Assembly (NCBI GenBank): GCA_050178385.1
Contig: JBFXGD010000042.1
Location: forward strand, 1 to 23,003
Length of the DNA: 23,003 nt
Reading direction: 5' to 3'
Origin: Calditrichaceae bacterium
Lineage (GTDB): Bacteria > Calditrichota > Calditrichia > Calditrichales > JBFXGD01
Below, piece after piece: positions 4,948 to 22,521 of the stretch. Position numbers and translations under genes: made by a program. Position 1 is the stretch's first letter; each line of letters begins with the position of its first letter. The notes beneath the pieces are model-generated. The model was not told the origin of the DNA, searched no databases, and was given only the letters and a program-made list of their open reading frames with translations.

Positions 4948-6285
4948 TTGGAAAAGCCTGTAAAACTGACAAATAAAAATTTCATGCTGCTCTGGCAGGG
5001 ACAGTTTGTAAGCAAACTGGGAACGCACATCTATCTGATTGCCATGGTATGGTGGATGAAAAACGCTTTTGAATCGGCCACGCTGATCGGTTTACTTTGG
5101 ACATCCGCCGCCGTGCCGGTTGTTCTTTTCAGCGCCATCGGAGGCGTGTTTGCAGACCGGTATTCGAGGCGCAATATTATTATTTTCAGCGATTTGATCA
5201 ATGGATTGGCAACCCTCAGTCTGGCCGCGGTTATGTTTACCACGCCGGACGCGACGATATTAATCGCTGTCTGGTTATTCTGTATTACCATTTTAGCTTC
5301 AACAGTAAACTCATTTTTCGGCCCAGCCATTTCGGCTTCAATTCCGGATCTTGTTCCAGAAGAAAAATTGTCAGCGGCCAACTCCATGTCGCAGTTCGCG
5401 GAGCAGGTATCTCTTTTTATCGGCCAGGGAATCGGGAGTACACTGTTTAAAATACTAGGCGCCCCTATTGTTGTATTGATTGACGGCATCAGCTATATAT
5501 TTTCGGCCATCAGTGAAATATTTATAAAAATACCGCAGGTTTTTCCTGAAAAAGAAAAAGATTTAAAAAGTCAATATCAGTCGTTCAAAAATGACTTGTG
5601 GGAAGGAATTGTTTACATTAAGGAGAACACCGGACTAAAAATGCTCCTTTTTGTTTCAATTTTTATCAATTTTTTTACAATGCCGGTTATTGTCCTTCTC
5701 CCTTTTTATGTTGATAATTTTTTAAAGGTTTCGGTTGACTGGTATAGCTTCTTCCTTGCTTCGCACGGGATCGGAATATTATTCGGCTACATATCTGTCG
5801 GGATTTTCAATCTTCACGGAAAAGTACGTTCCAAGATGTTTATTATCTTTACAATTATTGAATCCGGCGGGTATGGCATATTGGGATTGGTAACCTCCGC
5901 GCCTCTTGCGGTTTTTCTTGCTTTTATTGGCGGAATGTTTAACGGATTCATTATGGTTACCATTATTACGATTTTACAATTATCCACGCCAAGCGCGATC
6001 AGAGGCAGAGTATTCGGTGTACTCACTACTCTCTCAGGCAGTATCGCGCCGATCGGTATGCTTCTCGGCGGTTTGGCCGGGGATCTGACAGGTCAGAATA
6101 TTCCGCTTATTTATATGTTTTGCGGTGTGATAATGGCGGTCTTGTCAATATTAATTTCATTCAGCAGACCTTACCGGAAATTCCTTGCTTTTGAACCAAA
6201 AACAAAACTCGCTCCTGAAGGATTTACGTATAAAATAAAAATCTGGGGCCATGATGAAGCATCTTATATTGATATAAACAAATAA
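4948..6285 (+). CDS. MFS transporter (macrolide-efflux/EntS-like), probable exporter of the NRPS product
   Basis: About 12 hydrophobic segments; NKNFMLLWQGQFVSKLG start; motif A GVFADRYSRR; LQLSTPSAIRGRVFG. TTG start 10 bp after the NRPS stop, preceded by AAGGCGG. Confidence 0.92.
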   Translation: MEKPVKLTNKNFMLLWQGQFVSKLGTHIYLIAMVWWMKNAFESATLIGLLWTSAAVPVVLFSAIGGVFADRYSRRNIIIFSDLINGLATLSLAAVMFTTPDATILIAVWLFCITILASTVNSFFGPAISASIPDLVPEEKLSAANSMSQFAEQVSLFIGQGIGSTLFKILGAPIVVLIDGISYIFSAISEIFIKIPQVFPEKEKDLKSQYQSFKNDLWEGIVYIKENTGLKMLLFVSIFINFFTMPVIVLLPFYVDNFLKVSVDWYSFFLASHGIGILFGYISVGIFNLHGKVRSKMFIIFTIIESGGYGILGLVTSAPLAVFLAFIGGMFNGFIMVTIITILQLSTPSAIRGRVFGVLTTLSGSIAPIGMLLGGLAGDLTGQNIPLIYMFCGVIMAVLSILISFSRPYRKFLAFEPKTKLAPEGFTYKIKIWGHDEASYIDINK

Positions 6286-6530: not shown

Positions 6531-6590
6531 TAATCAATACCGCTCGCTCGACAGTAATTCATTTATGTGCAACAAATTATCAGGATTATT

Positions 6591-7391
6591 ATGAATAAAA
6601 TGCAAATGCCATTTGTGAGCCGTCAAAAATCGACCATTGTAATCCCAAAACCGGCAAAAAACGCCAAAATCAAGTTGTTTTGCCTTCCATTCGCGGGAGG
6701 CAGCAGCGCCGTTTTCCGGTCCTGGCCGAAACACATGCCCGATACTGTCGAAGTCTGCGCAGTGGAAATACCGGGCAGAGGACAGCGTATCAACGAACCT
6801 CTACGGGGAAGGATTGAAACGCTTGTCGCTGAATTATCACCGGAAATTAAAAACAGCATTGACCGGCCATTCGCCATATTTGGGCATAGTTTGGGCGCTA
6901 TTATTGGATTTGAAATTGCGCATCATCTCAAAATCAACTATGGTCTCAAACCTGTGCATCTGTTTCTATCCGGAACAAAAGCTCCGCAATTACAATCCGA
7001 TAAGAAGCTAATTTATAATCTTCCCGATGCTGAATTTCTGGCTGAGATAAAAAAACTTAACGGAACTCCCGCTGAGGTATTTGAACATCAGGATCTGCTC
7101 AAATTGATAATTCCCATTCTACGGGCCGATTTTAAACTGTGTGAAACCTACAGTTATGAAGCAAGAATTCCGCTTGACTGCCCGATTTCGGTTTTAGGTG
7201 GGTTACAGGATCCGCATCTCGATAAAAAAATGCTTGAGTCATGGAGTACGCAAACAAACGGGCCATTTTTTCTTAGAATGTTTCCGGGGGATCATTTTTA
7301 TTTAAATGATCATCAACAGATTCTTCTCAGTACAATAACCAGAGACATTAATGCTCATTTTAACTTAAATCTATTCCAAAGGCGTATCTAA
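6591..7391 (+). CDS. Type II (editing) thioesterase, GrsT/SrfAD family
   Basis: LFCLPFAGGS, GHSLG nucleophile motif, PILRADF, GDHFYL. The ATG at 6591 (AGGA upstream) is preferred over the GTG at 6567. Confidence 0.94.
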   Translation: MNKMQMPFVSRQKSTIVIPKPAKNAKIKLFCLPFAGGSSAVFRSWPKHMPDTVEVCAVEIPGRGQRINEPLRGRIETLVAELSPEIKNSIDRPFAIFGHSLGAIIGFEIAHHLKINYGLKPVHLFLSGTKAPQLQSDKKLIYNLPDAEFLAEIKKLNGTPAEVFEHQDLLKLIIPILRADFKLCETYSYEARIPLDCPISVLGGLQDPHLDKKMLESWSTQTNGPFFLRMFPGDHFYLNDHQQILLSTITRDINAHFNLNLFQRRI

Positions 7392-8122
7392 TGAATTTAA
7401 CTACATGGAAAAATTATTGTGAGCAGACTTTAATCGTTGATGGAGATGTTAAGGTCTGGCGCATAAAATTAAACATCCAGGATAAAGTAATTGCGATGTT
7501 TGAAAACCTGCTCTCCCCTGATGAACTCAACCGAGCTAATCGCTTTATGTTCGAAAAAGACCGTATTCACTTTATCGCCTGCCGCGGTCAGCTGAGAATA
7601 TTGCTCGCTCAATCTACGGGAATGAATCCGGGAAAATTGCAATTTGGATATAATCAGTATGGTAAGCCTTATCTGATTTTCCCTGTGCCCGGCCCTTACT
7701 TTAATGTATCACATTCTAACAATCTGGCCCTGGTGGCAATTTCCAATGATTTTCAGCTCGGAATTGATATTGAATTTATGAAATTAAATACCGATCAACT
7801 TCAAATCGCCAGAAATTTTTTCTCTGAACAGGAATATAAACAGCTCATTAATTTACCACAGAATCTGCACAAAGAAGCCTTCTATAATTGCTGGACCAGG
7901 AAAGAAGCGTATATAAAAGCATGCGGCAAAGGGCTCTCTATTCCACTTAATGAATTTGATGTAACTCTAAAGCCCGGAGAACTCGCCAAGATCATTGAGT
8001 GCCGGCATGATCCGTCATCTGTGTACAATTGGCAACTGGACTCTCTTGCGGTGCCCAACGGTTATATCGCGGCGTTGGCGGTAAATGCGAGATCATATGA
8101 ATTCCGTTTAACGGGATCATAG
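7391..8122 (+). CDS. Sfp-type 4'-phosphopantetheinyl transferase
   Basis: LLSPDELNRANRF, YGKP, FNVSHS, LGIDIE, WTRKEAYIKACGKGL; TAATG overlap with the TEII stop. Confidence 0.95.
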   Translation: MNLTTWKNYCEQTLIVDGDVKVWRIKLNIQDKVIAMFENLLSPDELNRANRFMFEKDRIHFIACRGQLRILLAQSTGMNPGKLQFGYNQYGKPYLIFPVPGPYFNVSHSNNLALVAISNDFQLGIDIEFMKLNTDQLQIARNFFSEQEYKQLINLPQNLHKEAFYNCWTRKEAYIKACGKGLSIPLNEFDVTLKPGELAKIIECRHDPSSVYNWQLDSLAVPNGYIAALAVNARSYEFRLTGS

Positions 8123-8229: not shown

Positions 8230-9204
8230 ATGAAAAAAATATTTCTGGTTCTGACTTTAACCTTATTAGCCTGCGATGCTCCACGACAGAATCCTCTTGA
8301 TCCAGGCGCGGATAATTATCTTCGGCAATCGCTGACAGAGATAAAAGTACAGCGGCTTTATCCTCCTAATCCGGTTTTAAAAGATGTGGTAGTAACAGAG
8401 GATAAACTCGGTTTTTACGGAAAAACCGGTTCCGAAGGCATCGTACAATGGTATCACCCGCCTTCCGACTCTATTCATCTAGCGATATTCAGAGACGGTT
8501 ATTATACACAAACCGGCTCATACCCAGGTTCAGATGATTATATGTTGATAAACATCTATCTGAACGCCATGCCGGTTATCTCAAACGTTTCGCTTTATTC
8601 GGTTTACAATAACACAGACAGTAAAACATATATCGTTGCGGAAGCACTGGTAACTGATCCTGACGGAATGACGGATATCGATGATATTTATATCGATGTA
8701 CCGGAAAAGAACTTTAAAATTTCTATCCCGCATGTCGCGGAATCCGATGATATGTACTCGGTTAAAATCAAATCGGATGATATCTCTTTAGGGCTGACAC
8801 CTGAAACGATTCCGGAATTGAATTTCGGACTGACCGTCAGAAATCTTAACGGAGACAGTCTGCAATCCCTCGGTTACAATATCCGCAGAGTAATCAATAA
8901 AACCCTGACCTTAAAATTACCGAATGTGGACCGCCCGGAATCCGGTGATATTCGCTTTACCTGGACAAAACTTGATTTACCATATACGCATCATTATAGA
9001 ATTATTCTTTTCAGACTCCAGAATCCTGTTATAAAAATTGGCACTTTTGACGAAATACAATCCGATAATGACCAGTATATTTTAAATGATCCCGTGATCC
9101 TGGCCGGTATAACGGATGGATGGTATCTCTGGACACTGGAAGTTGAAGATCAGATCGGCAATATTTGTCAGTCACAGGCTGTTAGTTTTCAATATTTTAA
9201 ATAG
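8230..9204 (+). CDS. Uncharacterised lipoprotein, beta-rich (Ig/FN3-like segments suspected)
   Basis: MKKIFLVLTLTLLA-C is a signal peptide II with lipobox (Cys codon 8272), followed by DAPRQNPLDP. Start set at the ATG at 8230 rather than 8173, from the signal peptide geometry. Confidence 0.8.
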   Translation: MKKIFLVLTLTLLACDAPRQNPLDPGADNYLRQSLTEIKVQRLYPPNPVLKDVVVTEDKLGFYGKTGSEGIVQWYHPPSDSIHLAIFRDGYYTQTGSYPGSDDYMLINIYLNAMPVISNVSLYSVYNNTDSKTYIVAEALVTDPDGMTDIDDIYIDVPEKNFKISIPHVAESDDMYSVKIKSDDISLGLTPETIPELNFGLTVRNLNGDSLQSLGYNIRRVINKTLTLKLPNVDRPESGDIRFTWTKLDLPYTHHYRIILFRLQNPVIKIGTFDEIQSDNDQYILNDPVILAGITDGWYLWTLEVEDQIGNICQSQAVSFQYFK

Positions 9205-9215
9205 GGGCGCGACTC

Positions 9216-10688
9216 TTGATTCTACCTTATAGCAAAATCAGGAATGATCATTTGCAGGTTATCTTCAAAATGACCAAATCCATGGCAAGTATGGATGATG
9301 AAACCGATATTCTTAATATGATCTTAACTGAGTTAATGAGCCAAACCGGAGCGGAAGTGGGCGCGTTTGTGTATTACAACCGGACCGAAGATATGTTTGA
9401 AACAAGAAATGTTGTATCCGCAAATCCCAAAAATGCCGAAAAAATCAATTTTTCTCAAACCGTCTTCAGAAAAGTACTTGATTCGAAGGAAGCGCTTTTG
9501 CTTTTTGATACCAATAAAGATGAAAGCATCAAAAGCCGGGATAGCATCATCATAAATGATATCCATGCCATCCTGGCGTTTCCGCTGATAATTATGGATC
9601 AGGTTTACGGTGTCATGTATTTCGACAGCAGGAAAAACCGGCAGCATTTTAATGAAACTTCAAGACAGTTGCTCTCCTTTTTTGCCCCGATCGCATCCCT
9701 GACTCTTGAACAGGTTTTAAGCCGGCGAGATGTGCGGAACGAAAACATAATATTAAAATCACGTCTGGACCAGGAGGTTGGAATCTCTTCGATGATCGGT
9801 GAAACCGATATCATGAAGCAGATGTGTAAGCTGATCAGAAAGGTCGCTCCGTCCGATGTTTCGGTCGTTATCATCGGTGAAAACGGAACAGGAAAAGAGC
9901 TCGTCGCTCTTGCCATTCATGATCTCAGCAACCGGAAGGATAAACCCTATCTTGCCCAATATGTCGGTAATATTCCGGCCAGCATCCTGGAAAGTGAACT
10001 ATTTGGTTACAAGAAGGGCGCGTTTACCGGAGCGGATAAAGATAAACCCGGCCTGTTTGAAGCGGTTAGCGGCGGTACTTTATTTCTGGACGAAATCGGT
10101 GATCTAAGCATGGAACTTCAGACAAAACTCCTGCGTGTCCTTCAGAATAATGAGATCAAACGGCTGGGCGAAAATGTCGTACGAAAGGTAGATGTAAGGA
10201 TCATCGCGGCAACTCATCAGGATTTATCGCTTATGGTGCGTCAGGGAAAATTCAGGGAGGATTTGTACTACCGTCTGAGCGTCATTAATATCAATGTCCC
10301 TCCCCTGAGAGACAGGATCGATGATATTCCCTTTCTTGTCACTCATTTTATGGATAAATACGGGCCAGGCAATCCTATAAAAATAAAGAAAACCGCGATA
10401 CAGAAACTTATGGACTACCAGTGGCCCGGTAACGTGCGGCAACTGGAAAACGCGGTAAAAAGGGCGATTGTGCTTGTACAAAATGATTCCATCGGGCCTG
10501 ATGATTTTGAATTTAACTGTATTGAGTCCGAACCTTTCATGGGCACGCTTGATGAGTATAAAAATAAACTGATCATCGAGAGACTTCATCAATTTAAAGG
10601 CAATAAAACCCGGGCCGCAAAAAGCCTCGGCATATCCTTGCGATATCTTCAATTGAAAGTCAAAGAAATCATCGGTAATGAGTCATGA
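9216..10688 (+). CDS. Sigma54-dependent enhancer-binding protein: N-terminal GAF, AAA+, Fis-type HTH
   Basis: GAF-like segment (ILAFPLIIMDQVYGVMYFDS); Walker A GENGTGKE; ESELFG; intact GAFTGA (10017-10034); Walker B LFLDEIG; FREDLYYRL; WPGNVRQLEN; HTH GNKTRAAKSLGIS. TTG start preceded by AGGGG. Confidence 0.95.
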   Translation: MILPYSKIRNDHLQVIFKMTKSMASMDDETDILNMILTELMSQTGAEVGAFVYYNRTEDMFETRNVVSANPKNAEKINFSQTVFRKVLDSKEALLLFDTNKDESIKSRDSIIINDIHAILAFPLIIMDQVYGVMYFDSRKNRQHFNETSRQLLSFFAPIASLTLEQVLSRRDVRNENIILKSRLDQEVGISSMIGETDIMKQMCKLIRKVAPSDVSVVIIGENGTGKELVALAIHDLSNRKDKPYLAQYVGNIPASILESELFGYKKGAFTGADKDKPGLFEAVSGGTLFLDEIGDLSMELQTKLLRVLQNNEIKRLGENVVRKVDVRIIAATHQDLSLMVRQGKFREDLYYRLSVININVPPLRDRIDDIPFLVTHFMDKYGPGNPIKIKKTAIQKLMDYQWPGNVRQLENAVKRAIVLVQNDSIGPDDFEFNCIESEPFMGTLDEYKNKLIIERLHQFKGNKTRAAKSLGISLRYLQLKVKEIIGNES

Positions 10689-12241
10689 ATTTAATCGGTA
10701 ACTACGAAATTCTCCGTACCATCTCAGAAAAAGGTCAGAACCGCGTGTATGAAGCCCGTCATACAGTGCTCGACAGGAAAACATTACTTAAAGTCTATCT
10801 CGGCGGAGATGATTTACTGATTCAGCGATTTGAACGGGAAGCGCGGATTGTCGCTGATCTGAACGATGACTCGATTGTATCTGTTTATGATTTCGGAAAG
10901 GTTGACGGTCAGTTTTATATTTCGATGGAATACGTGGAAGGGTGTTCACTGGCTGAGTATATGGCAAACGACAAACCGGATGCTAAGGATATCATTGGTA
11001 TCGCCTCAAAAATAACGCGGGGACTCGCCGTCATTCACAGCAAAGGTTACATTCACCGTGACCTGAAACCCGAAAACATCCTGATTGATAAAAATATGAA
11101 TATCAATTTGACTGATTTCGGTATCAGTATTCATGAGTCCGCGAACCGGATTACTGAGGAAGGTTCGCTGATTGGCACCCCCTTGTATCTTTCCCCGGAA
11201 CAAATAAATAATCTGCCTGTTATCTTCAGCGCGGATATGTTCGCGCTCGGTACAATATTGTATCAGTTGGCAACAGGTACTCATCCTTTTGAAGCACCAC
11301 AATACGGCGAAATATTTTCAAAAATTTTAAGTTATGACCCGCCCCCTGTTAACACAATCAACCCTTCCCTGCCCGAATGGTTTAGCGAATCAATAGGGTT
11401 GCTGATAAGTAAAGATCCGGACAACAGACCGCCCGATGCGCGAAAGTACGCTTTATTATTGGACAAAATGAATCCGGAGATAAATCAGTTAAGAGTACCT
11501 TATGACTCAAAATCGAAAAAAGTTCGGTCGATGACACTATTTTTTATCGTTCCCGCCGTCATCTTAGGCATCATATTCATTATTTATTTAAGATCAATAT
11601 ATTCTCCGGCAGGCAACCCGGACATCCCCCAACCCGCTTTCACCGACAGCGTCTTATTTGCCGAAAACTCAGGACCGGCCTTGAATGAGATTGAATTGAA
11701 GCCGGATGAGATCATATCCACAAAAAAGGTAAAATCTGTTTCCAAAGAAAAAAACCTGCCATCCAAAACTGACTATGAACCGGATCAATCTATAAAAATT
11801 ATAGAACCGACCACTCTGCTGATAAACACATGGCCCTGGGCTAAAGTTTACATTGATTACCGTGAAATTGATGTCACACCAATGTCAGAACCAATCAAAT
11901 TTAATCCCGGTAAATATCTGGTTTCATTACAACACCCGCTTTACCCCTCCTGGTCTGACAGTATTACCGTCAAAAAGGGAATAAACAATCTATTCATTTT
12001 TAATCTGGACTCTCTCTTCATCCGGCTTGATCTGCAGATTAATCCATGGGGAGAAGTTTATATCGACGGCCAATACCGCGGAACAAGCCCTCTGGCGGAT
12101 CCGATCTATCTGACCCGTGAAAATCATTCCGTTACCATTAAGAATAAATATTATATTACACACCGGGACTCCGTCATATGGAACGGTGACCATAAAATTG
12201 TCAAGAATATTATGCTACGGGAAATACCACCGCCAAATTAA
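10685..12241 (+). CDS. Hanks-type Ser/Thr protein kinase with one TM helix and extracytoplasmic PEGA-like repeats
   Basis: LLKV, RFEREA, SMEYVEG, HRDLKPEN (11054), DFG, GTPLYLSPEQ, DMFALG; TM LFFIVPAVILGIIFIIYL (~11537-11590); two C-terminal repeats, INTWPWAKVYID and QINPWGEVYIDG. ATGA overlap with the EBP stop. Confidence 0.93.
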   Translation: MNLIGNYEILRTISEKGQNRVYEARHTVLDRKTLLKVYLGGDDLLIQRFEREARIVADLNDDSIVSVYDFGKVDGQFYISMEYVEGCSLAEYMANDKPDAKDIIGIASKITRGLAVIHSKGYIHRDLKPENILIDKNMNINLTDFGISIHESANRITEEGSLIGTPLYLSPEQINNLPVIFSADMFALGTILYQLATGTHPFEAPQYGEIFSKILSYDPPPVNTINPSLPEWFSESIGLLISKDPDNRPPDARKYALLLDKMNPEINQLRVPYDSKSKKVRSMTLFFIVPAVILGIIFIIYLRSIYSPAGNPDIPQPAFTDSVLFAENSGPALNEIELKPDEIISTKKVKSVSKEKNLPSKTDYEPDQSIKIIEPTTLLINTWPWAKVYIDYREIDVTPMSEPIKFNPGKYLVSLQHPLYPSWSDSITVKKGINNLFIFNLDSLFIRLDLQINPWGEVYIDGQYRGTSPLADPIYLTRENHSVTIKNKYYITHRDSVIWNGDHKIVKNIMLREIPPPN

Positions 12242-12248
12242 AAAGGTC

Positions 12249-13022
12249 ATGATGATGAAAATTAAATTTATTTTCATTCTTATTCTCATAGCTGTCCCGA
12301 TATTTTCACAAAATCTGAGCAGGGAAATCGGTACACTTGAAGAGGATCTCCGGCAGTTCTCATATGAACGGGTGCTTGAAAAAGGAAATTATCTTCTTTC
12401 TGATTCATTCATAAGCAAAGACGACAGCCTGACCATATTCCAATATATGCTTCAGGCCGCATCATCATTAAATGATACAACTCAGGCAAGGGAAATTTCT
12501 GAAAAAATATTGAAATGTTCACCAGGATTTAAATTAAATCCTAAAATTATTTCACCAAAAATTATTAATTTTTTTGAGGAGTACAGGAATAAAAAGGTAA
12601 ATGTAAAGAATGAAGCGCCGGTGGAGACTGCAACATTCAGCGGCAGACCGGCATTTAAAGCCATGCTGGCAAATATCATTATTCCGGGCTCAGGTTATTT
12701 TTTCACACAAAACAAGACAAAAGGCTATATATTTTCCGGAATTTCAACTATTATCATCGGCGGCATCACCTATTACTCAATCCATTCATCCGAATACCGG
12801 GATGATTATATGAATGCGCGTGGCAGCATCGATTTTGATCATCTTTACAATCGTTATAATGATGCCTATAAGACGAGAAACACATTTATATTGTCATATT
12901 TAATACTCAATTTTTATTCGTTTTACGATTTCTATACTCACGGCAATGATATGACTTTCTCATTTGATGTAAAAACAAAATCCAACAAATCAATCGTATT
13001 CCAGATACAAAAGCGCTGGTGA
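12249..13022 (+). CDS. Exported hypothetical protein: helical (TPR-like) N-half, membrane-associated C-half (DUF5683-like)
   Basis: Likely start at ATG 12249 after AAAGG (not 12117, which lies inside the kinase). Signal peptide MMMKIKFIFILILIAVPIFS; helical region ending PGFKLNPKIISPKIINFFEEYR; ANIIIPGSGYFF...KGYIF hydrophobic hairpin; ends in alternating SIVFQIQKRW. The family assignment is from memory of motifs and is uncertain. Confidence 0.7.
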   Translation: MMMKIKFIFILILIAVPIFSQNLSREIGTLEEDLRQFSYERVLEKGNYLLSDSFISKDDSLTIFQYMLQAASSLNDTTQAREISEKILKCSPGFKLNPKIISPKIINFFEEYRNKKVNVKNEAPVETATFSGRPAFKAMLANIIIPGSGYFFTQNKTKGYIFSGISTIIIGGITYYSIHSSEYRDDYMNARGSIDFDHLYNRYNDAYKTRNTFILSYLILNFYSFYDFYTHGNDMTFSFDVKTKSNKSIVFQIQKRW

Positions 13023-13023
13023 T

Positions 13024-13059
13024 CCATGCATATTTTTCATGGTTACGCACAATATTCAT
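13024..13059. promoter_or_regulatory. Candidate upstream activator sequences (enhancer) for the EBP
   Basis: Two copies of AYGCA-N5-TTCAT (13026-13040 ATGCATATTTTTCAT; 13045-13059 ACGCACAATATTCAT), each an imperfect palindrome, about 150-180 bp upstream of the predicted sigma54 start site. Confidence 0.5.
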
Positions 13060-13128
13060 AGCTCCGGCTTAAAAATTATAGCGGCCTTTTTTAAAAAAGT
13101 ATTTTTAATTACAAGCTAACACTCTAAT

Positions 13129-13141
13129 TAACAACTACTTA
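13129..13141 (+). promoter_or_regulatory. Candidate IHF site between enhancer and sigma54 promoter
   Basis: TAACAA-CTAC-TTA has one mismatch to WATCAA-N4-TTR, with an A/T-rich tract upstream. Confidence 0.35.
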
Positions 13142-13179
13142 ATAAAGAGATATTCATTCGCTTTCAGGAATTCTTTTAA

Positions 13180-13194
13180 TGGCACATTAATTGC
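13180..13194 (+). promoter_or_regulatory. Sigma54 (RpoN) -24/-12 promoter
   Basis: TGGCAC-ATTAA-TTGC matches the TGGCAC-N5-TTGC consensus exactly (GG 13181-2, GC 13193-4, 10-nt spacing). It is intergenic, 50 bp upstream of the ATG at 13245 and next to an EBP gene. Confidence 0.88.
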
Positions 13195-13244
13195 GTTATT
13201 TAAGGATGTTAACCATCTTTATAAACCAACCTTGGGGGGTATTT

Positions 13245-15452
13245 ATGATTCATTTTAGACGGTTCCATCTTATACCGGTTATATTTATTATTTTCGCGTT
13301 GGCTATTCCGGGATTTTCACAGTTTCCAAATCTCGGATATTTAACAGGGACCGTTAGCGCCGACGGAGTAGGGATAGAAATGACGCTTCTTCGTCTCTCA
13401 AATCAGGATACTTCTTTTGTCTCTATCAGCGGCGCGGATGGAAACTACGCGTTTGTCGCGCCTCCGGGCACCTATACCGTGAGCAATGTTGACACGATGA
13501 ACTACTGGCATTTTACCTCTGAAGAAGTACAGATTATTAAATCATTTCAACCTACACTTCTGGATATCAGTTTGACTAACCGGCCTCAGGATGCAAAAAT
13601 CACCGGTCTTGTTACATTTAAGGGAACTCCGATGGCCGGCGTGACGGTCTATTTTCTTAAACTGGGACCGGAGGGCACTGACTTTGAAGATCTGGAAACC
13701 GGAAACTTTAATATGGCTGATCTGATGCTTGTTCCCTACAAGGCAGTCACTGACTCAGAAGGAAAATTTGAACAGCCGGTGCTTTCGGGTTCTTATTTTA
13801 TGCATATCCCCGGCGATGACAATGAAGGTTATCTGCCCTACTGGAATATTGATGTATCAGTCGGGAAAGATAAGACTCTGGATCTTGGTGAAATTAAATT
13901 ACAGGAATTCAAACGTGTAACCGGTATGGTTACGAACTTTAGTGAATTCGATTTTGTAGTGATATGGGCTTATTCGGTCAATTCAGGGAAACCGTTTATG
14001 GCAAATATTTTTCCCACAAACGATGACGGTTCTTATGAGCTCAAAGTTGCCCCTGATACGTACATATTCAGAGCCGAAGGATTCATGCAGGAATTAAATC
14101 ACGTTTACACTGTATTTTATGATGGCGTGTTCACAACAAAAGAAGCCGCGCAGATCGATGTATTTGATGATGTCTCAGGAATCGATTTTGTTCTGCCGAC
14201 ATCCGCGGATCTGAAACCGGTGACGATTACCGGTACGGTGTCCAGCGCGACCAGCGGCAAACCTCTGATGGATGCGACCGTCGATTTCTTTACGGCTAAC
14301 TTCCTGAATTATGTATTTAATACGTACGAAGCAAAAACCGATGCCGATGGCAATTATTCGATCTCGGCTCACACATTTATGAACAGGGATTCCTTAATAG
14401 CATTTTCATATAAGGACGGGTTCTTTGCGAAATTCTATGATGATCAACCTACCTATCACACCGCGGATCCCATCATCATCGAACCGGACGGAACAGAGAA
14501 ATATACCGTTTCAGGTATCGATTTCGCGCTTGATTCAATTGATACTGACATCGGATATAAAATTTCAGGAAAAGTCATAGACGATGAGGGCAATCCCGTA
14601 TATCGCGCGCAGGTTACCGCCTACAGCACAGCTCCGAGCGCCGGTGTTGTTTACACACACGCGGATTCGCTGGGGAATTATGATTTCAGCAGTATATTTG
14701 TAGAAGGCAGCTATGTTGTTCTCCAGGCATGGGCAGGTTATGGTTATGTCCCGGTGATTTATGACGGCAAAACCAGCTGGGAAGATGCGGATACTCTGCG
14801 TATGACAGAAGATAAAGTAGCGAATTTCACCCTGAAAAAAGCAAAACTCCGGATTCCATTCGGTCAGATTACAGGTATCGTGTCTGTGAACTCAACGAAC
14901 AAAACAACGGCTTCATCCATTGAAGGAGCAACCATCTATCTGAAGAAAAGCGGCACGATTGAATGGACGAACGCGGCCTATGTAAAGGCTGACGGTTCCT
15001 TTGACCTGCCGGTTGAATCATACGGTATATATGACTTGAAACTGACATCTCAGAATTATCAGGATGTAACTAAGAACAATATTGAAATTAATGAGCAGAC
15101 CGGGAATTCTGTTAAAGTTGACTTCAACCTCCAGGTTACATCTGTCGGTGATAATCCGCTTCAGGGTGTGATCAGGACGAGCGTGCTCCATAACGCTTAT
15201 CCCAATCCATTTAACCCGTCAACTACAATTCGTATTGATATGGTTAAAACCGAACGGGTAACTCTGACCGTATATAATATCCTCGGTCAGAAAGTACGTC
15301 TGCTATATAGCGGTATATTGGAAAATGGTACCAGAAATTTTGTCTGGGACGGCAGAGATGATAGCTCTAAATTGGTCTCTTCAGGATTATATTTCTATCA
15401 GTTCAAATCAGATAATCTGGTTCAGACAAGATCGATGATGCTACTGAAATAA
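13245..15452 (+). CDS. Secreted protein with ~6 carboxypeptidase-regulatory-like beta-sandwich repeats and a C-terminal FlgD-Ig/T9SS type A sorting-like domain
   Basis: The ATG at 13245 follows a GGGGG RBS; signal peptide ...IFIIFALAIPGFS-Q; repeated (I/L)(T/S)GxV...D(A/S)xG(N/K)(Y/F) units; C-terminus LHNAYPNPFNPSTTI...VYNILGQKVR...WDGRD...SSGLYFY...MMLLK. Confidence 0.88.
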   Translation: MIHFRRFHLIPVIFIIFALAIPGFSQFPNLGYLTGTVSADGVGIEMTLLRLSNQDTSFVSISGADGNYAFVAPPGTYTVSNVDTMNYWHFTSEEVQIIKSFQPTLLDISLTNRPQDAKITGLVTFKGTPMAGVTVYFLKLGPEGTDFEDLETGNFNMADLMLVPYKAVTDSEGKFEQPVLSGSYFMHIPGDDNEGYLPYWNIDVSVGKDKTLDLGEIKLQEFKRVTGMVTNFSEFDFVVIWAYSVNSGKPFMANIFPTNDDGSYELKVAPDTYIFRAEGFMQELNHVYTVFYDGVFTTKEAAQIDVFDDVSGIDFVLPTSADLKPVTITGTVSSATSGKPLMDATVDFFTANFLNYVFNTYEAKTDADGNYSISAHTFMNRDSLIAFSYKDGFFAKFYDDQPTYHTADPIIIEPDGTEKYTVSGIDFALDSIDTDIGYKISGKVIDDEGNPVYRAQVTAYSTAPSAGVVYTHADSLGNYDFSSIFVEGSYVVLQAWAGYGYVPVIYDGKTSWEDADTLRMTEDKVANFTLKKAKLRIPFGQITGIVSVNSTNKTTASSIEGATIYLKKSGTIEWTNAAYVKADGSFDLPVESYGIYDLKLTSQNYQDVTKNNIEINEQTGNSVKVDFNLQVTSVGDNPLQGVIRTSVLHNAYPNPFNPSTTIRIDMVKTERVTLTVYNILGQKVRLLYSGILENGTRNFVWDGRDDSSKLVSSGLYFYQFKSDNLVQTRSMMLLK

Positions 15453-15467
15453 TGACTCGAAATGCGG

Positions 15468-15500
15468 AAAATCCCCGGTTTACAGCCGGGGATTTTTTTT
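15468..15500. terminator. Intrinsic terminator, probably bidirectional, between convergent genes
   Basis: AAAATCCCCGG-TTTACAG-CCGGGGATTTT followed by further T's; it sits between the stops of 13245-15452 (+) and zur (-). Confidence 0.9.
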
Positions 15501-15969
15501 ATATCTTTTTCTGGCAATTAGAACAATACCCATAAAGCTCAAACGCGTGACTGATCACTTTGAAATTCAGATCATTTCCCACCACTGGAATAACCCGGCT
15601 AATATCACATTCGGAAAGACAGATTATTTTGCCGCACGAAAGACATATGGCATGATGATGATGAAGTTTTCCAAAATATTTGAACTGCGCTGCTTCCTTA
15701 TTCTGCAAATTAACCTGACCGGCCACACCGGATACTGAAAGCATGCTCAGATTCCGGTAAACCGTATCCAGGCTGATATTTGGATGCTCCGCCCTAACCT
15801 GCCTGTAAATTTCCTTAGCGGTTAACGGCTGATCGGATCCCATTAATAATTTTAATATGGACAGACGCTGAGGCGTTAATTTTTGACCAATTTTTTTTAA
15901 CTCAGCGCCCGCGAATTTTAAATCTATCTTTGTCTCGTTAATTTTTTTACCCATCGGAATAGTTTTCAT
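15499..15969 (-). CDS. zur: Fur-family metalloregulator, most likely Zur
   Basis: LTPQRLSIL, PNISLDTVYRNL, HHHHAICLSCG, ELYGYCSNC (two CxxC); last gene of a Zn ABC operon. The subfamily call rests on context. Confidence 0.8.
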   Translation of the reverse strand: MKTIPMGKKINETKIDLKFAGAELKKIGQKLTPQRLSILKLLMGSDQPLTAKEIYRQVRAEHPNISLDTVYRNLSMLSVSGVAGQVNLQNKEAAQFKYFGKLHHHHAICLSCGKIICLSECDISRVIPVVGNDLNFKVISHAFELYGYCSNCQKKI

Positions 15970-15982
15970 TTTTTAAGATTGC

Positions 15983-16777
15983 TCAATTTCTGGCGCTTAC
16001 CATCGTCAGGAAAAATATAACCGCCTGAATCAGGATAATTGTCGCCCCGCTGGGAAGATCGAGCCAGTACGAAGTGAACAGACCCGTGACAGCGCTTAAT
16101 AGACCGATGCTCATTGATACCCATGTCATTCTTCTGAAGCTCGGCGCGATAAGCCTTGCGGTAGCTGCCGGTATTACGAGAAACGCGGCGATCAGTATGA
16201 TTCCGACCACTTTGACGGCAACAACAACGGTAATGGCGATCAGTATTGATAAAAAATAGTCATCCCGCTGTACCGGAAGCCTGTCGGCGATAGCAAGCTC
16301 ACGATCAAATGTCGCGTACGCCCACCTTCGCCATAATGGCAAGGTGAGAAGTGAAATTCCGAAGGCGCCGGAAGTAACCCATAAATCTACTTTTTTAACG
16401 GATAAAATGGAGCCGAATAAATAGGCGAACGCATCAACTGTATATTCCTGCTTTAATGAAAGAAAGACAACACCCAGCGCCACAGAAACAGCAAAAAATA
16501 TTCCTACGGATGTGTCATTTCCCAATGCTGTCTGTTCCCTAACCCATACGATTGCTATGGCGACAAAAACAGTAAACGGAGCCGCTATCCATAACGGTTC
16601 GGTACCAAGCAGCAATCCCAGTGCAACCCCTCCAAATGCGGCATGCGCAAGACCGCTTCCAAGAAAACTCAGACCTCTTTGAACAACAAACACTCCGTAA
16701 TAACTGGCCATCACACCAACCAAGGCTCCGGCAATCAAAGCGCGCTGCATAAAGGGCATACTCATGAAATCAAACAT
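15983..16777 (-). CDS. znuB: Zn/Mn ABC transporter permease
   Basis: FMQRALIAG, GLAHAAFGGVALG, YLFGSIL, VVGIILIAAFLVIPAATA, DLPSGATI. Start ATG at 16777 overlaps the ATPase stop (ATGTTTGA). Confidence 0.93.
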   Translation of the reverse strand: MFDFMSMPFMQRALIAGALVGVMASYYGVFVVQRGLSFLGSGLAHAAFGGVALGLLLGTEPLWIAAPFTVFVAIAIVWVREQTALGNDTSVGIFFAVSVALGVVFLSLKQEYTVDAFAYLFGSILSVKKVDLWVTSGAFGISLLTLPLWRRWAYATFDRELAIADRLPVQRDDYFLSILIAITVVVAVKVVGIILIAAFLVIPAATARLIAPSFRRMTWVSMSIGLLSAVTGLFTSYWLDLPSGATIILIQAVIFFLTMVSARN

Positions 16778-17525
16778 TATCTTTAAACCTCTGGTTAAAT
16801 GCGTGTTCGTGGCCAATATGACCAAAAGCCCGGCGCAGACATTCATCTGTCAGCGCTTTCTCCGGTGGGCCGTAACCTACCAGCCTCCTGTTCAGGATCA
16901 TCACATGACTCACATGATGTTTTACAGCTTCCCAGTCATGAGTAATCATCAGTATTGTGCATTTGGTTTCCTTCTGATAATTATCCAGAACACGGTATAA
17001 ATCAGCTTCTCCCGTAACGTCAATTCCGGTGGCGGGTTCATCAAGCATGATAAGTTTTGGCTGCCGGGCAAGACTTCTCGCCAGAAATACCCGTTGCAAC
17101 TCTCCTCCAGAGAGTTCATTCAATGGACGGTACGCCAGATGCGCCGCGCCGACCCGTTCAAGCGCCTCAATCGCCGAAGCGGATTTTTTCGATTTAAACC
17201 TCCATGGCCAGCGTTGATTCAACCCCGTCATCACCAGTTCAATGGACATCGCGGGAAAGTTTCTGTCCATGGTTTTTATTTGCGGAACATAACCGATCCA
17301 TTCCGGCGATATATTCTGAACAGAATTGCCAAAAAGTCTGACACTGCCCGAGCTCACAGGGATGATGCCGAGCAAAACTTTTAGAAAAGTTGATTTTCCC
17401 GCGCCGTTTGGACCGATGATGGCGATAAATTCATCCTTTCCCACGGTCAGATTGATTTCTTCAAGAATGGCTAAATTGCTCAGTCTTACGGATAGATCAT
17501 TAATTTCCAGCACCGGTTTATTCAC
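16770..17525 (-). CDS. znuC: Zn/Mn ABC transporter ATP-binding protein
   Basis: GPNGAGKST, IGYVPQ, LSGGELQRVFLAR, MLDEP, ITHD; GTG start overlapping the znuA stop. Confidence 0.93.
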   Translation of the reverse strand: MNKPVLEINDLSVRLSNLAILEEINLTVGKDEFIAIIGPNGAGKSTFLKVLLGIIPVSSGSVRLFGNSVQNISPEWIGYVPQIKTMDRNFPAMSIELVMTGLNQRWPWRFKSKKSASAIEALERVGAAHLAYRPLNELSGGELQRVFLARSLARQPKLIMLDEPATGIDVTGEADLYRVLDNYQKETKCTILMITHDWEAVKHHVSHVMILNRRLVGYGPPEKALTDECLRRAFGHIGHEHAFNQRFKDNV

Positions 17526-18393
17526 CTAAAGCCTCCAGAATTACCTTTGCGTTGTAGCGGATTAAATCTGAATAATTGACACGGCCTTCAACGCCGCCCA
17601 ATGGATCGAGAAATACAATTTTAGCGCCTGTGGATTCCGCCACTACCTCAGCGGCCCGGTTTGGCAGTTGTTTTTGTGTCAGAATCACTCTGATGCGTTC
17701 TTTCCGCATAAGTGAAATTACGCCCTTCAGCGTCTTCGGCGTTGGTTCTTTGCCCGGAATGGTTTCAATGGCGCCGGCGATTTTAATCTGATATCTGTTG
17801 CAGAAATACTGCATAAACGGATGAGCAATAAATACGTTCGCGCCTTTAACCGGCTTTAGCATCTCTTCGATTTCCGAATTCAGTGAATCGAGTTTAACGG
17901 CAAAACGTTCTGAGTTGGTCCGATATTTTTCTTTTCCCTTTGGATCCAACTCCGATAGTTTTGCCGCCAATGACGGAAGCAATGCCTTCACCGCCAGAGG
18001 ATCGAGCCAAAAATGTGGATCAATATCTCCCGAATGACCATGATCATGGTCCCGCACAATCATTTTAAGCCGATAGGAATCGGGTAAAAAATCCATTAAT
18101 TGGATTTTGTTTTCTGACGGAATTCTTGAAACCCAGCCGTCCAGTTCGGGTGATCCGTAAATAAGCGCCGTTGCCTTCTCAATCTCTCTCAAATGTGACG
18201 GCCGCAGTTCAAAGGTGTGAGGTGACGCTCCTGCCGGCAACAAGGCGTTAACCGCTTCTCTTTCACCCGACACTTCACGGATGATTTCAGCAAACGGATG
18301 GATGGATGTCACATATCTAGATTGCGCGTAAGAATTATTGAATGCTCCGGTCAAAATTAAAACCGATATTAAAAATAAATACAGCTTTTTCAT
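17518..18393 (-). CDS. znuA: Zn ABC transporter substrate-binding protein (cluster A-I)
   Basis: Signal peptide; metal ligands in SPHTFE, DPHFWLDP, AHPFMQYF, LDPLG; short His loop DHDHGH. Three His ligands favour Zn over Mn. Confidence 0.92.
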   Translation of the reverse strand: MKKLYLFLISVLILTGAFNNSYAQSRYVTSIHPFAEIIREVSGEREAVNALLPAGASPHTFELRPSHLREIEKATALIYGSPELDGWVSRIPSENKIQLMDFLPDSYRLKMIVRDHDHGHSGDIDPHFWLDPLAVKALLPSLAAKLSELDPKGKEKYRTNSERFAVKLDSLNSEIEEMLKPVKGANVFIAHPFMQYFCNRYQIKIAGAIETIPGKEPTPKTLKGVISLMRKERIRVILTQKQLPNRAAEVVAESTGAKIVFLDPLGGVEGRVNYSDLIRYNAKVILEALGE

Positions 18394-18621: not shown

Positions 18622-19209
18622 ATGCGATTATTAAAGCTCTCAACCTTGACGCTGTTTAGCTTACTGATTTTAATGTCATGCGGTACGAAAGAAAACAAAG
18701 AATCCGGCGCTCCCGCGGCATCTGCACCCGATGGTGAAGTCATTTATACCGCGCCTAACGGCTGGGTCGCGCAAACCCCCGGCAGTTCGTTCAGAAAGGC
18801 AGAATATGCTCTTCCCGGTATGGATGGCAAGGATGCGGCAGATCTGGGTGTATTCTTTTTCCCCGGAACCGGTGGCTCTGTTCAGGATAATTTAGAGCGA
18901 TGGTACGGTCAGATAAAACAGCCGGATGGATCATCAACATCCGCCAAGGCGGAGATTAAGAAAATTAGTGTCGGTAGTCTACCTGTAACCATGGTCTACG
19001 TGACAGGAACCTATATGAAATCCAGCTCCGGAATGATGATGGGCGGACCGGTTGATGAACTACCCGGATACGCGATGCTTGCAGCGATAGTTGAAACAGC
19101 TAATGGTCCCTGGTTTTTTAAGATCACCGGACCACAGGAAACAGTTGATTATTGGCGACCGACTTTTGGAAAATTTGTCAACACATTTAGAATTAAGAAA
19201 ACATCCTAA
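18622..19209 (+). CDS. Uncharacterised lipoprotein
   Basis: Lipobox LILMS-C; GGAG RBS; conserved-looking blocks PNGW, GGSVQDNLERWYGQ, WFFKITGP; Met-rich loop YMKSSSGMMMGG. Confidence 0.82.
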   Translation: MRLLKLSTLTLFSLLILMSCGTKENKESGAPAASAPDGEVIYTAPNGWVAQTPGSSFRKAEYALPGMDGKDAADLGVFFFPGTGGSVQDNLERWYGQIKQPDGSSTSAKAEIKKISVGSLPVTMVYVTGTYMKSSSGMMMGGPVDELPGYAMLAAIVETANGPWFFKITGPQETVDYWRPTFGKFVNTFRIKKTS

Positions 19210-19503: not shown

Positions 19504-19947
19504 ATGACATCATTTATTAAAAGAGAATATGATTACGCCATTCGAATCTGCGCTTACCTGGCCGGTCAGGCGCCGGAGACGATTGTGCCATTATCCCAAA
19601 TCTCAAAAAGGCTCTTTATCTCAAGACCGTTCGCCAGTAAAATCGTCTATCAATTAATAAAAAAGCAGATTCTTGCCTCGGTTCAGGGAAAATATGGAGG
19701 AATCTATCTGGCCTGCGATCCGCGTGATTTATCCGTACTTGATATACTTATCTCAATGGGATTTGATCATCATATTAATGAATGTGTTGAAAACCTGACG
19801 GCATGTCCTCTCAGCAATAATTGTAAAATTCATAATTTTTTTGTTCATCAGGAAGCCATGCTGCTTGATAATTTCAAAAATAAAAAATTAAATGAACTGG
19901 CTTTTTCAAACAAAGATTTATCAATTGAAAAATCAGTGTGCCGTTAA
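19504..19947 (+). CDS. Rrf2-family transcriptional regulator with three Cys (probable Fe-S binding; IscR/NsrR-like)
   Basis: DYAIRICAYLA, SVQGKYGGIYLA...LSVLDIL, and C-X6-C-X5-C (ECVENLTACPLSNNCKIH). Confidence 0.92.
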   Translation: MTSFIKREYDYAIRICAYLAGQAPETIVPLSQISKRLFISRPFASKIVYQLIKKQILASVQGKYGGIYLACDPRDLSVLDILISMGFDHHINECVENLTACPLSNNCKIHNFFVHQEAMLLDNFKNKKLNELAFSNKDLSIEKSVCR

Positions 19948-19985
19948 AAATCTACTTCTGAATTAATACACTGAAAGGAGGCAAA

Positions 19986-21332
19986 ATGGATGTTCTCATG
20001 CTGTCCCGCTGGCAGTTTGCAGTCACCACTGTTTATCATTTTTTCTTTGTGCCTTTAACCCTTGGCTTATCTATTATGGTCGCCATTATGGAAACCATGT
20101 ATGTCCGGACCGGAAATGAAGTTTATCTGCGAATGACAAAATTCTGGGGCAAATTATTTCTGATTAATTTCGTAATGGGAGTCGTTACTGGACTTGTCCA
20201 GGAGTTTCAGTTCGGAATGAACTGGTCTGAATATTCCAGATTTGTAGGCGATATTTTCGGCGCTCCTCTGGCCATCGAAGCGCTGCTGGCTTTCTTCCTG
20301 GAATCCACCTTTCTTGGCGTCTGGATTTTCGGATGGGAGAGACTCTCCAAAAAGATACACGCGGCAACGATCTGGATTGTCGCTATCGGCTCAAATCTCT
20401 CCGCCTTATGGATACTGATCGCCAATTCTTTTATGCAGGAGCCGGTCGGTTATGTTGTCAGAAACGGCCGGGCTGAGATGGTTGATTTTTTAGCACTCAT
20501 CGTCAATCCGCATGTATGGGTTCAGTTCCCCCATGTGTTTTTCGCCGGGATTTCAACCGCGGCGTTTTTTGTCCTTGGTATCAGCGCATACCATCTTCTC
20601 AAAAAAAGTGATGATATTGAAGTATTTCAGAAATCTTTTAATATGAGTGTGGTTTACGGACTTATTGGATCAGTTCTTGTCGCCCTGCTCGGTCATACAC
20701 AGATGCAGCACATGGTGGTTGAACAACCCATGAAAGTCGCGGCCGCCGAAGCACTCTGGGAAAGCGCAGATCCCGCCGCGTTGTCTTTATTCACGGTCGG
20801 TGATGAAGTGGAAAGGAAAGATATTTTCGCCATACATGTTCCAAGACTGCTTTCGATTCTTGCCTATAACAGTTTTGACGGAGAAGTTAAAGGAATTAGA
20901 AACCTGCAAGCCGAGTATGAACAAAAATACGGACCGGGAGATTATGTACCTCCGGTCATCATTACATACTGGACTTTCCGGATTATGGTCGGCGCAGGCA
21001 CCGTTATGATTCTGATCATCCTCTATGCTCTTTATTTTGTTCTCACCAAACGGTTTGATATCAAGCCGGTTTACCTGAAAATTTTTATACTGTCGCTTTT
21101 CCTGCCCTATATCGCAAACTCCGCGGGATGGATATTAACCGAAGTCGGACGGCAGCCCTGGGTGGTATTCGGATTGATGAAAACAGCCGATGCGGTTTCA
21201 CCGACGGTTACCGGCGGTGAAGTTTTATTCTCCCTGATTGTTTTTACCTTATTATATGGAGCACTAATGGCCGTGGATATTTATTTGCTGAAAAAATACG
21301 CTCTGTCGGGCACAAAACAATTAAACCATTAA
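19986..21332 (+). CDS. cydA: Cytochrome bd quinol oxidase subunit I (short Q-loop type)
   Basis: LSRWQFAVTTVYHFFFVPLT, EFQFGMNWS, AFFLESTF, QPMKVAAAE, GWILTEVGRQPW; AAGGAGG RBS; 448 aa. Confidence 0.98.
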   Translation: MDVLMLSRWQFAVTTVYHFFFVPLTLGLSIMVAIMETMYVRTGNEVYLRMTKFWGKLFLINFVMGVVTGLVQEFQFGMNWSEYSRFVGDIFGAPLAIEALLAFFLESTFLGVWIFGWERLSKKIHAATIWIVAIGSNLSALWILIANSFMQEPVGYVVRNGRAEMVDFLALIVNPHVWVQFPHVFFAGISTAAFFVLGISAYHLLKKSDDIEVFQKSFNMSVVYGLIGSVLVALLGHTQMQHMVVEQPMKVAAAEALWESADPAALSLFTVGDEVERKDIFAIHVPRLLSILAYNSFDGEVKGIRNLQAEYEQKYGPGDYVPPVIITYWTFRIMVGAGTVMILIILYALYFVLTKRFDIKPVYLKIFILSLFLPYIANSAGWILTEVGRQPWVVFGLMKTADAVSPTVTGGEVLFSLIVFTLLYGALMAVDIYLLKKYALSGTKQLNH

Positions 21333-21350
21333 CGAATAGAGAGAAAAATT

Positions 21351-22364: not shown

Positions 22365-22457
22365 TATTGATGTAAATTCAATTTCTGAATGACTCCTGCG
22401 GCCCGAAGTTAATAATTAAAAATGTGGAGCCGTTCAGACAGATTAGGATTCTTGCAG

Positions 22458-22492
22458 ATTTGCGGTATGATTTTTTCATACCGCAAATTTTT
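22458..22492 (+). terminator. Strong hairpin/terminator between cydB and cydD
   Basis: Perfect 13-bp stem ATTTGCGGTATGA-TTTTT-TCATACCGCAAAT followed by TTTT. Confidence 0.75.
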
Positions 22493-22521
22493 ATCTAAAA
22501 CCTTTACAGCAAATATAATAC

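Follow-up and report, generated by a model that had tools for sequence, protein, structure and literature searches.

The subject of this report is a stretch of 23,003 nucleotides (referred to below as the window) that constitutes the entire contig C42 of a draft genome of a Calditrichaceae bacterium (3.89 Mb; 94% complete), and in particular a cassette of four genes on its plus strand encoding, in order, a lipoprotein, a GAF-type sigma-54 activator, a Hanks-type Ser/Thr kinase and a membrane protein resembling DUF5683. They are followed by a predicted sigma-54 promoter and by the gene for a secreted repeat protein, here called the cargo, that carries a type IX secretion system (T9SS) sorting domain. 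On the evidence of gene order across genomes, the four genes are a real and strictly conserved unit; their predicted functions give what we judge to be about an even chance that they form a self-contained signalling module leading from the cell envelope to one sigma-54 promoter. Kinase-coupled control of sigma-54 transcription is known in kind, and in the form that it takes in this cassette it looks like an undescribed envelope-to-gene switch.

A conserved four-gene cassette

The genes occupy positions 8230-9204 (lipoprotein, 324 amino acids), 9216-10688 (activator, 490 amino acids), 10685-12241 (kinase, 518 amino acids) and 12249-13022 (membrane protein, 257 amino acids). The gaps of 11, -4 and 7 bp between these co-oriented genes that were given in the original prediction, which was made from the sequence of the window alone, are correct when re-derived from the coordinates, and the activator and kinase are indeed coupled through an ATGA, such that the start of the kinase gene overlaps the stop of the activator gene by 4 bases. 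The activator gene itself has a TTG start, with GGGGCG just 5' of it.

The lipoprotein family was found in 55 of 61 related genomes, at one to four copies in each, and at all 20 loci fetched across the class the order lipoprotein, activator, kinase, membrane protein was present on the same strand. A scan of 185,579 species genomes using a nine-sequence alignment of the window's subfamily gave 80 further loci, and removal of seven duplicates of loci already in the set left 94. The order of the four genes was kept at every one of the 78 loci with at least 4200 nt of sequence downstream of the lipoprotein gene, and likewise at all 72 of those with at least 6000 nt. Co-occurrence of the four genes in other genomes had been set beforehand as a test on which the prediction could founder, and it was passed at all 78 of these loci; the same conserved order rules out a chance adjacency of four unrelated genes. 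The carriers include, in addition to Calditrichota, metagenome-assembled genomes (MAGs) labelled Ignavibacteria, Melioribacteraceae and candidate division KSB1.

Beyond the four genes themselves, the layout differs from one group of loci to another. In subfamily A, to which the window belongs, the cassette is followed by an intergenic region and an orthologous cargo of ~730 amino acids. In subfamily B the kinase gene is separated from the membrane-protein gene by one for a Kelch-propeller protein of ~415 amino acids with a sorting domain (5 of 5 loci examined), and a second sorting-domain protein often comes next. A third layout has no detected sorting-domain gene on the same strand; at the one such locus that was read (L099, from a MAG labelled Ignavibacteria), TGGCAC-N5-TAGC is found at 12100-12170, after the membrane-protein gene and before a lipoprotein-like gene. 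As judged from these loci, each subfamily keeps to one kind of cargo, which changes from subfamily to subfamily. The suggestion that it would prove variable thus holds between subfamilies (where Kelch, other repeat proteins and lipoprotein-like proteins are found) and fails within that of the window, where the cargo is a full-length orthologue with 37-39% identity in eight more distant relatives and 94% in the same genus.

Promoter, enhancer and cargo

The predicted sigma-54 (-24/-12) promoter of the window, TGGCACattaaTTGC at 13180-13194 on the plus strand, is an exact TGGCAC-N5-TTGC lying 50 bp before the ATG of the cargo, and is the sole exact match in the window. Taken alone the match is not significant, since with one mismatch allowed 2 matches are found in the window against 1.07 expected; its weight comes from conservation. 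Upstream of the cargo the pattern TGG[CT]A[CT]-N5-TTG[CTA] is present at 19 of the 20 loci of the window's subfamily, and the twentieth, a locus from the same genus, has CGGCAC-N5-TTGC, one base off. In the first nine of these loci the element lies ~50-70 bp before the start codon, and in five of the 19 matches it falls within the longest reading frame of the cargo or immediately upstream of that frame; for the window, the cargo start was taken as 13245, replacing the start of the longest open reading frame at 13191. Over all layouts together, 43 of 63 cassette-adjacent sorting-domain genes have the pattern between -200 and +100 of the start of the longest open reading frame, to be compared with a background of 0.012 matches per 300 nt (97 on the two strands of the 2.36 Mb that these loci comprise). 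The expectation that such a promoter would follow the cassette in relatives is borne out by both sets of figures.

Between the last cassette gene and this promoter, cross-locus comparison reveals a putative, strand-neutral enhancer (13024-13062) made up of two dyads 19 bp apart, ATGCA-N5-TTCAT at 13026-13040 and ACGCA-N5-TTCAT at 13045-13059. It begins 4 bp past the stop codon of the membrane protein and lies ~120-155 bp upstream of the -24 element, a spacing that is usual for enhancer-binding proteins. Tandem dyads of the form ATGCA-N5-TGCAT, 18-19 bp apart, are kept at all 20 subfamily loci, in intergenic regions that have otherwise diverged. At least 15 of the 20 core positions agree at every locus and at least 16 at 17 of them, each locus reaching a score equalled by no more than 8 of 1000 shuffles, and at 18 of the 20 the first dyad lies 4-35 bp past the membrane-protein stop. 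A relaxed form of the tandem has just one occurrence in the 3,889,472-base genome, at 13026 of contig C42.

Dyads with a TGCA-N5-TGCA core are also seen before the second cargo gene at two subfamily-B loci, L028 (~8340-8365) and L030 (~8250-8290; cassette-oriented), for example CTGCAAATTTTGCA. This core is common to the subfamily-A enhancer and the subfamily-B dyads, and paralogous activators may therefore be reading similar sites.

The cargo (13245-15452, plus strand, 735 amino acids) is predicted by Pfam and NCBIfam to be a T9SS-sorted repeat protein. It has a signal peptide, four stretches of CarboxypepD_reg repeats (PF13620) of beta-sandwich type and a C-terminal sorting domain of T9SS type A (TIGR04183 at residues 652-730, 39.8 bits against a cut-off of 23; PF18962, 30.7 bits against 27), and no catalytic domain was found in it by either database. 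SprA, the translocon of the system and the only one of its parts that was searched for, is encoded in the genome (885.6 bits summed over a single frame of 2066 amino acids), so that sorting domain, signal peptide and translocon, the features expected for a type A cargo, are all in place. The cargo unit is closed by an intrinsic-terminator-like hairpin of 15 pairs followed by a T-run (15466-15498, plus strand). The exact promoter, the single secreted-protein gene and the terminator all lie after the cassette where they had originally been placed.

A gene for sigma-54 itself, rpoN, is present on contig C97. Taken together, these comparisons make the predicted path from activator to enhancer to sigma-54 promoter to cargo well supported, while the activator-to-cargo step is not proven, because the genome encodes ~25 sigma-54 activators.

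The activator and the kinase

In the activator Pfam identifies a GAF domain (residues 28-165), a Sigma54_activat domain (PF00158, residues 193-359, E 1e-67) of the AAA+ type with a GAFTGA motif, and a Fis-type helix-turn-helix, HTH_8 (residues 451-484). In an alignment of 21 sequences the Walker A residues G224-K227 and the GAFTGA residues G268, F270, T271, G272 and A273 are invariant and A269 nearly so, as are, within the GAF region, A46, G49, S80, D98, S110 and D137 (all invariant). With its Walker A and GAFTGA motifs, its C-terminal helix-turn-helix, a candidate enhancer upstream of a -24/-12 element and rpoN in the same genome, the protein has every feature by which an enhancer-binding protein would be predicted. 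The best NCBIfam match is to NifA (TIGR01817), at 340.8 bits, below the cut-off of 528.85; the match to NorR (NF003451), at 323.9 bits, is below that of 476; and no NCBIfam equivalog cut-off is reached. As originally noted, neither a receiver nor an FHA domain was matched by Pfam (in the latter case there was no PF00498 match), which sets the protein apart from the FHA activators of the Myxococcus type and, there being no N-terminal receiver and no partner histidine kinase, from the NtrC type; no histidine kinase domain was found by Pfam in the four cassette proteins or the cargo, again as predicted.

The kinase has a cytoplasmic kinase domain (PF00069, residues 20-248, 131.7 bits against a cut-off of 31.7, E 4e-38), one membrane helix (~284-304) and, beyond a linker that is not conserved, two beta-sandwich repeats of PEGA-like type (~376-515), which would form its ectodomain. 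Residues K36, E52, H124-R125-D126, K128, N131 and D144-F145-G146 are invariant in 21 sequences, so that the signature residues of a Hanks-type kinase are all present, activity is predicted and selection on catalysis is suggested. The glycine loop is not conserved. In the case of the ectodomain, the whole protein scores 32.2 bits against PEGA (PF08308; gathering threshold 20.8), with no single stretch that passes, and the kinase gene was not among the matches in a six-frame PEGA search of the genome. The protein is not of the PASTA type: its score against PknB/Stk1 (NF033483), 224.3 bits where 450 is needed, comes from the kinase domain only, and there is no PASTA match in Pfam.

The envelope proteins

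The lipoprotein has a signal peptide ending in the lipobox LLAC, of which Cys15 is followed by a conserved DAPRxNPxDP motif; in the alignment of 21 sequences Cys15, N21, P22, D143, D145 and D149 are invariant, as is the motif DxDGxxDI. No family in Pfam or NCBIfam matches it. An AlphaFold2 model (mean pLDDT, the model's own confidence measure, 90) has three Ig/FN3-like beta-sandwich domains, and a fold search with the protein gave only generic tandem beta-sandwich matches (calcium-binding adhesins, cytokine receptors) and no functional lead. Look-alike clusters of ~325 amino acids were returned from Ignavibacteriota, Calditrichota, Bacteroidota and Rhodothermota by a language-model look-up, which should be treated as a lead only. 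At the start of the stretch 8272-8310 (residues 15-27), the lipid-anchor Cys has Asp or Glu after it in 19 sequences out of 21; of the other two, one has Gln and one an insertion of two residues. An Asp at this +2 position retains a lipoprotein in the inner membrane of E. coli, a rule that may not hold in Calditrichota.

The fourth protein of the cassette was characterised from an alignment of 18 sequences and a structure model (mean pLDDT 80). Its signal peptide leads into a TPR-like helical domain that contains a conserved SPK motif; next come a two-helix hairpin similar to DUF5683, with a PGSG motif, and a short C-terminal strand pair. The window's copy matches no Pfam or NCBIfam family, and does not match DUF5683 (PF18935) even at E values up to 1, this family being matched by 10 of the 18 aligned members (best E 1.3e-7); DUF5683 was found to be mentioned only in passing, and in few papers, in a full-text literature search. 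At the C-terminus (12990-13019 in the window), the last residue is aromatic, W or F, in 13 of the 18 homologues and Leu or Arg in the rest. Such an aromatic-ended strand pair recalls the C-terminal signal of outer-membrane proteins, in a region where the confidence of the model is low.

Topology and co-occurrence suggest a periplasmic sensor complex that might be made up of the kinase's PEGA-like ectodomain together with the lipoprotein and the TPR/DUF5683-like protein. A complex prediction using residues 372-518 of the kinase, 27-324 of the lipoprotein and 22-125 of the membrane protein scored 0.01 (mark 0.32), which is uninformative either way. The profile-profile probability relating the kinase ectodomain to the first lipoprotein domain is 5%, and no shared fold is claimed.

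How the kinase may act on the activator

In the module as we envisage it, the lipoprotein with its three domains, the TPR/DUF5683-like protein and the membrane kinase, by its PEGA-like ectodomain, would face the periplasm and jointly read some envelope or surface cue, following which the kinase domain would act on the co-translated activator. The likeliest route would be Ser/Thr phosphorylation of the GAF region, with stoichiometric binding to that region as an alternative. Either might lift a GAF block on the AAA+ ATPase of the kind known from NorR, whose AAA+ domain is kept repressed by the GAF domain pending a signal (PMC2941729). The activator would bind the tandem dyads at 13026-13059 and drive sigma-54 RNA polymerase at 13180-13194, the sole predicted target in the genome being the cargo, a repeat protein as judged from its domains.

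We infer the step from kinase to activator from the co-occurrence of the two genes, which are adjacent at all 78 loci, from the translational coupling that their ATGA overlap implies, and from proteins in which comparable domains are fused. Among the best activator relatives longer than 858 amino acids, 87 of 120 combine a protein-kinase domain, GAF, a sigma-54 AAA+ domain and HTH_8 in one polypeptide. By the classical gene-fusion argument, the existence of such proteins elsewhere points to a functional link between the separate kinase and activator. These fusions (P0174-P0270) are ~1270-2330 amino acids long, often with AAA_16 or TPR modules, and come from sources including Myxococcota, Acidobacteriota, Planctomycetes MAGs and Labilithrix luteola; in P0229 the kinase is N-terminal and GAF-AAA+-HTH C-terminal, while in the other two that were examined the kinase domain is below the scan threshold. 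Relatives of the GAF region itself were sought among 1.84 billion representatives. The match list is dominated by giant multi-GAF proteins, and of its 150 matches 22 were picked by length (400-720 amino acids). As further indirect support for the step, an FHA domain, a reader of phosphothreonine, directly precedes the GAF domain in six of these 22 (P0065, P0106, P0115, P0131, P0135 and P0136), whose outputs are a sigma-54 AAA+ domain (2 of 6), an adenylate/guanylate cyclase or an HD domain.

A number of points weigh against the module. On the DNA side, 20 of the 63 adjacent sorting-domain genes have no promoter pattern, and no same-strand sorting-domain gene was detected at 18 of the 72 loci with at least 6000 nt downstream. 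The enhancer count is partly circular, the motif having been derived from the very loci that were scored, so that genome-wide uniqueness alone is independent, and another of the ~25 activators could serve the cargo promoter. As regards the kinase, its unconserved glycine loop leaves its use of ATP in doubt, and the assignment of its ectodomain to PEGA is weak. The fused kinases are soluble proteins with AAA_16/TPR modules rather than membrane PEGA kinases, and in at least one of them, P0175, the catalytic loop is degenerate, with HGD and DLG. Lastly, FHA and receiver domains are both missing from the activator; small molecules are common ligands of GAF domains, and control of the activator could bypass the kinase.

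The alternative that survives best is unlikely in our estimation but deserves serious attention: the activator would be a one-component system, its GAF domain binding a cytoplasmic small molecule and alone deciding cargo transcription, while the kinase, lipoprotein and membrane protein would serve the same surface process in some other way, for instance with proteins of secretion or of the envelope as the substrates of phosphorylation. No kinase is needed for the control of GAF-type sigma-54 activators such as NifA and FhlA, and in an activator lacking FHA and receiver domains the six invariant residues of the GAF region could line a ligand pocket. NorR, too, is controlled through its GAF domain with no kinase (PMC2941729, available text). 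Such a scheme does not account readily for a kinase gene that directly follows the activator gene at 78 of 78 loci, overlapping it in the window, or for the kinase-GAF-sigma54 fusions in 87 of 120 long relatives, and a shared theme alone would not be expected to fix gene order across phyla.

It is improbable, in our view, that the kinase is instead a membrane-bound anti-activator that binds the activator and frees it on an envelope cue, its catalysis serving for autophosphorylation only or being dispensable. There are precedents for anti-activators in NifL with NifA and PspA with PspF; translational coupling through ATGA would suit a one-to-one complex, and both the unconserved glycine loop and the degenerate catalytic motifs of some fused relatives fit a kinase of this sort. 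The invariance of the catalytic Lys, Glu, HRD, Asn and DFG in 21 of 21 kinases, however, argues for selection on catalysis.

Very improbable, finally, is an arrangement in which another of the ~25 activators serves the cargo promoter and the cassette regulates something else, such as the upstream non-ribosomal peptide genes, even though peptide-synthetase accessory genes lie upstream of the cassette at 19 of 24 subfamily loci and Myxococcus natural-product genes are described as being under sigma-54 activators in the available portions of PMC7910581 and PMC4880591: the enhancer travels with the cassette, 4-35 bp past its last gene at 18 of 20 loci, and in tandem form is single-copy in the genome, whereas the 40 kb of upstream synthetase genes in the same-genus genome have no gene-strand sigma-54-like site or tandem and a complete genome of the same order has one -24/-12-like site, inside a synthetase gene, and no tandem.

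If, as we prefer, the cassette is an envelope-to-promoter module, two candidates for its signal can be put forward, namely the state of the exported cargo itself, by analogy with PorA and PorY (see below), and the product of the upstream non-ribosomal peptide cluster. A more elaborate form of the module, which taken as a whole we consider distinctly doubtful, would be a trans-envelope feedback switch with either the cargo (acting by way of its sorting domain or transthyretin-like repeats) or the non-ribosomal peptide as ligand, in which the PEGA-like kinase, the lipoprotein and the DUF5683-like protein are the sensor, and the GAF domain is phosphorylated directly; it would operate in Calditrichota, Ignavibacteria, KSB1 and possibly Rhodothermota, for which only look-alikes are available.

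Relation to known systems

As far as can be told from sequence, the cassette resembles other relays from envelope to transcription, yet it lacks the defining features of NtrBC, PorXY, the FHA activators, NifA/NorR and PknB. A parallel in logic is that of Porphyromonas gingivalis, where the sensor PorY is bound in the periplasm by PorA, through the sorting domain of the latter, with activation of PorXY-SigP as the result (PMC12152298). In both cases a T9SS sorting-domain protein is genetically tied to a membrane sensor kinase controlling transcription of surface or secretion genes, a likeness for which no homology is claimed. The P. gingivalis system uses a histidine kinase (PorY), a response regulator (PorX) and an extracytoplasmic function (ECF) sigma factor (SigP), whereas the cassette has a Hanks kinase, a GAF-AAA+ activator and sigma-54, with a lipoprotein and a DUF5683-like protein in addition; having no histidine kinase or response regulator, it does not belong to the PorXY-SigP-PorA group.

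Coupling of Hanks kinases to sigma-54 activators is the feature shared with the kinase-GAF-sigma54 fusions and with Myxococcus xanthus, which reportedly has FHA-domain sigma-54 activators and Ser/Thr kinases, as described by Jelsbak et al. in 2005 and Perez et al. in 2008. The activator of the cassette differs from these in having neither an FHA domain nor a fused kinase; the kinase, a protein of its own, sits in the membrane and has its PEGA-like domain on the periplasmic side, and there are two envelope proteins and a T9SS cargo besides. With NorR, NifA (together with NifL) and FhlA the activator shares its GAF-AAA+-HTH_8 architecture and enhancer dyads ~100-150 bp upstream of a -24/-12 element. 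It differs in that its partner is a Hanks kinase rather than NifL, and its predicted target a secreted surface protein rather than nitrogen, nitric oxide or formate metabolism. A more distant comparison is with the Rcs system of enterobacteria (the lipoprotein RcsF, IgaA and RcsC/D/B), in which a histidine phosphorelay has a sigma-70 output. In Rcs a lipoprotein and an accessory inner-membrane protein feed envelope status to a membrane kinase that changes surface-related transcription, as may conceptually be the case in the cassette, but there is no sequence relationship and the likeness would be one of function only.

The original statement that the cassette could not be matched to a described system stands, in that full-text literature searches, the scope of which did not extend to subscription journals and supplements, found no published description of it. 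A regulon survey of 2025 (PMC12316311) makes, in its available portion, no mention of Calditrichota, Ignavibacteria, Ser/Thr kinases or type IX secretion. Sigma-54 has been proposed as a governor of the cell exterior (available text of PMC3162934), an idea with which the cassette fits.

Genomic surroundings

Upstream of the cassette, and also on the plus strand, domain calls identify a non-ribosomal peptide synthetase of which only the 3' end is present (3-4937), a transporter of the major facilitator superfamily (4948-6285), a type II thioesterase (6567-7391) and a phosphopantetheinyl transferase (7391-8122). Among the 24 loci where lipoprotein identity to the window's copy reaches 28% or more, 19 have peptide-synthetase accessory genes within a few kb upstream of the lipoprotein gene; the loci with upstream peptide-synthetase genes include L014, L017, L018, L020, L038 and L042, and the synthetase genes extend over more than 40 kb in two relatives. 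Sigma-54 control of these upstream genes was considered and rejected on 40 kb from each of two relatives: the same-genus stretch has no gene-strand -24/-12-like site, that of the complete same-order genome has one, inside a synthetase gene, and neither has a tandem enhancer. Each of these 40-kb stretches was assembled from two pieces with one base missing at the joint, so that breaks in open reading frames at that point are artefacts, and the starts of the two clusters lie further upstream, beyond the stretches covered.

Downstream of the terminator, on the minus strand (15499-18393), domain calls give a Fur-family regulator followed by an ABC-3 permease, an ABC ATPase and a ZnuA-type binding protein, which together resemble a unit for the uptake of zinc or manganese. 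In the same-genus genome, too, the gene for Fur adjoins the cargo, though it does not at more distant loci. The remainder of the window, on the plus strand, encodes a protein of 195 amino acids with a lipobox-like signal, LILMSC, and no Pfam family (18622-19209), and then an Rrf2-family regulator and both subunits (I and II) of cytochrome bd oxidase, followed by the beginning of an ABC transporter that has a membrane domain (19504-23001).

Significance

The known inputs to sigma-54 activators are receiver domains, GAF/PAS ligands and FHA domains. What appears to be new in this cassette, within the literature searched, is that a GAF-type activator has as its constant partner a Hanks kinase that is a membrane protein in its own right, with two envelope proteins alongside. 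Found one to four times per genome in Calditrichota, Ignavibacteria and KSB1, the cassette is no single oddity, and the copies adjoin genes for secreted or surface proteins. With a single promoter, enhancer and cargo, the cassette offers a handle on the regulation of surface proteins in little-studied and mostly uncultured phyla that bear the T9SS, and a compact test bed for the control of sigma-54 transcription by Ser/Thr kinases, while its steady place beside a non-ribosomal peptide cluster hints at a possible link between a secreted peptide and a surface protein. If the feedback switch described above were true, a Ser/Thr kinase would for the first time be seen to act on a sigma-54 activator through a phospho-switch that dispenses with both FHA and receiver domains, and the composition of the cell surface in these phyla would be determined by it.

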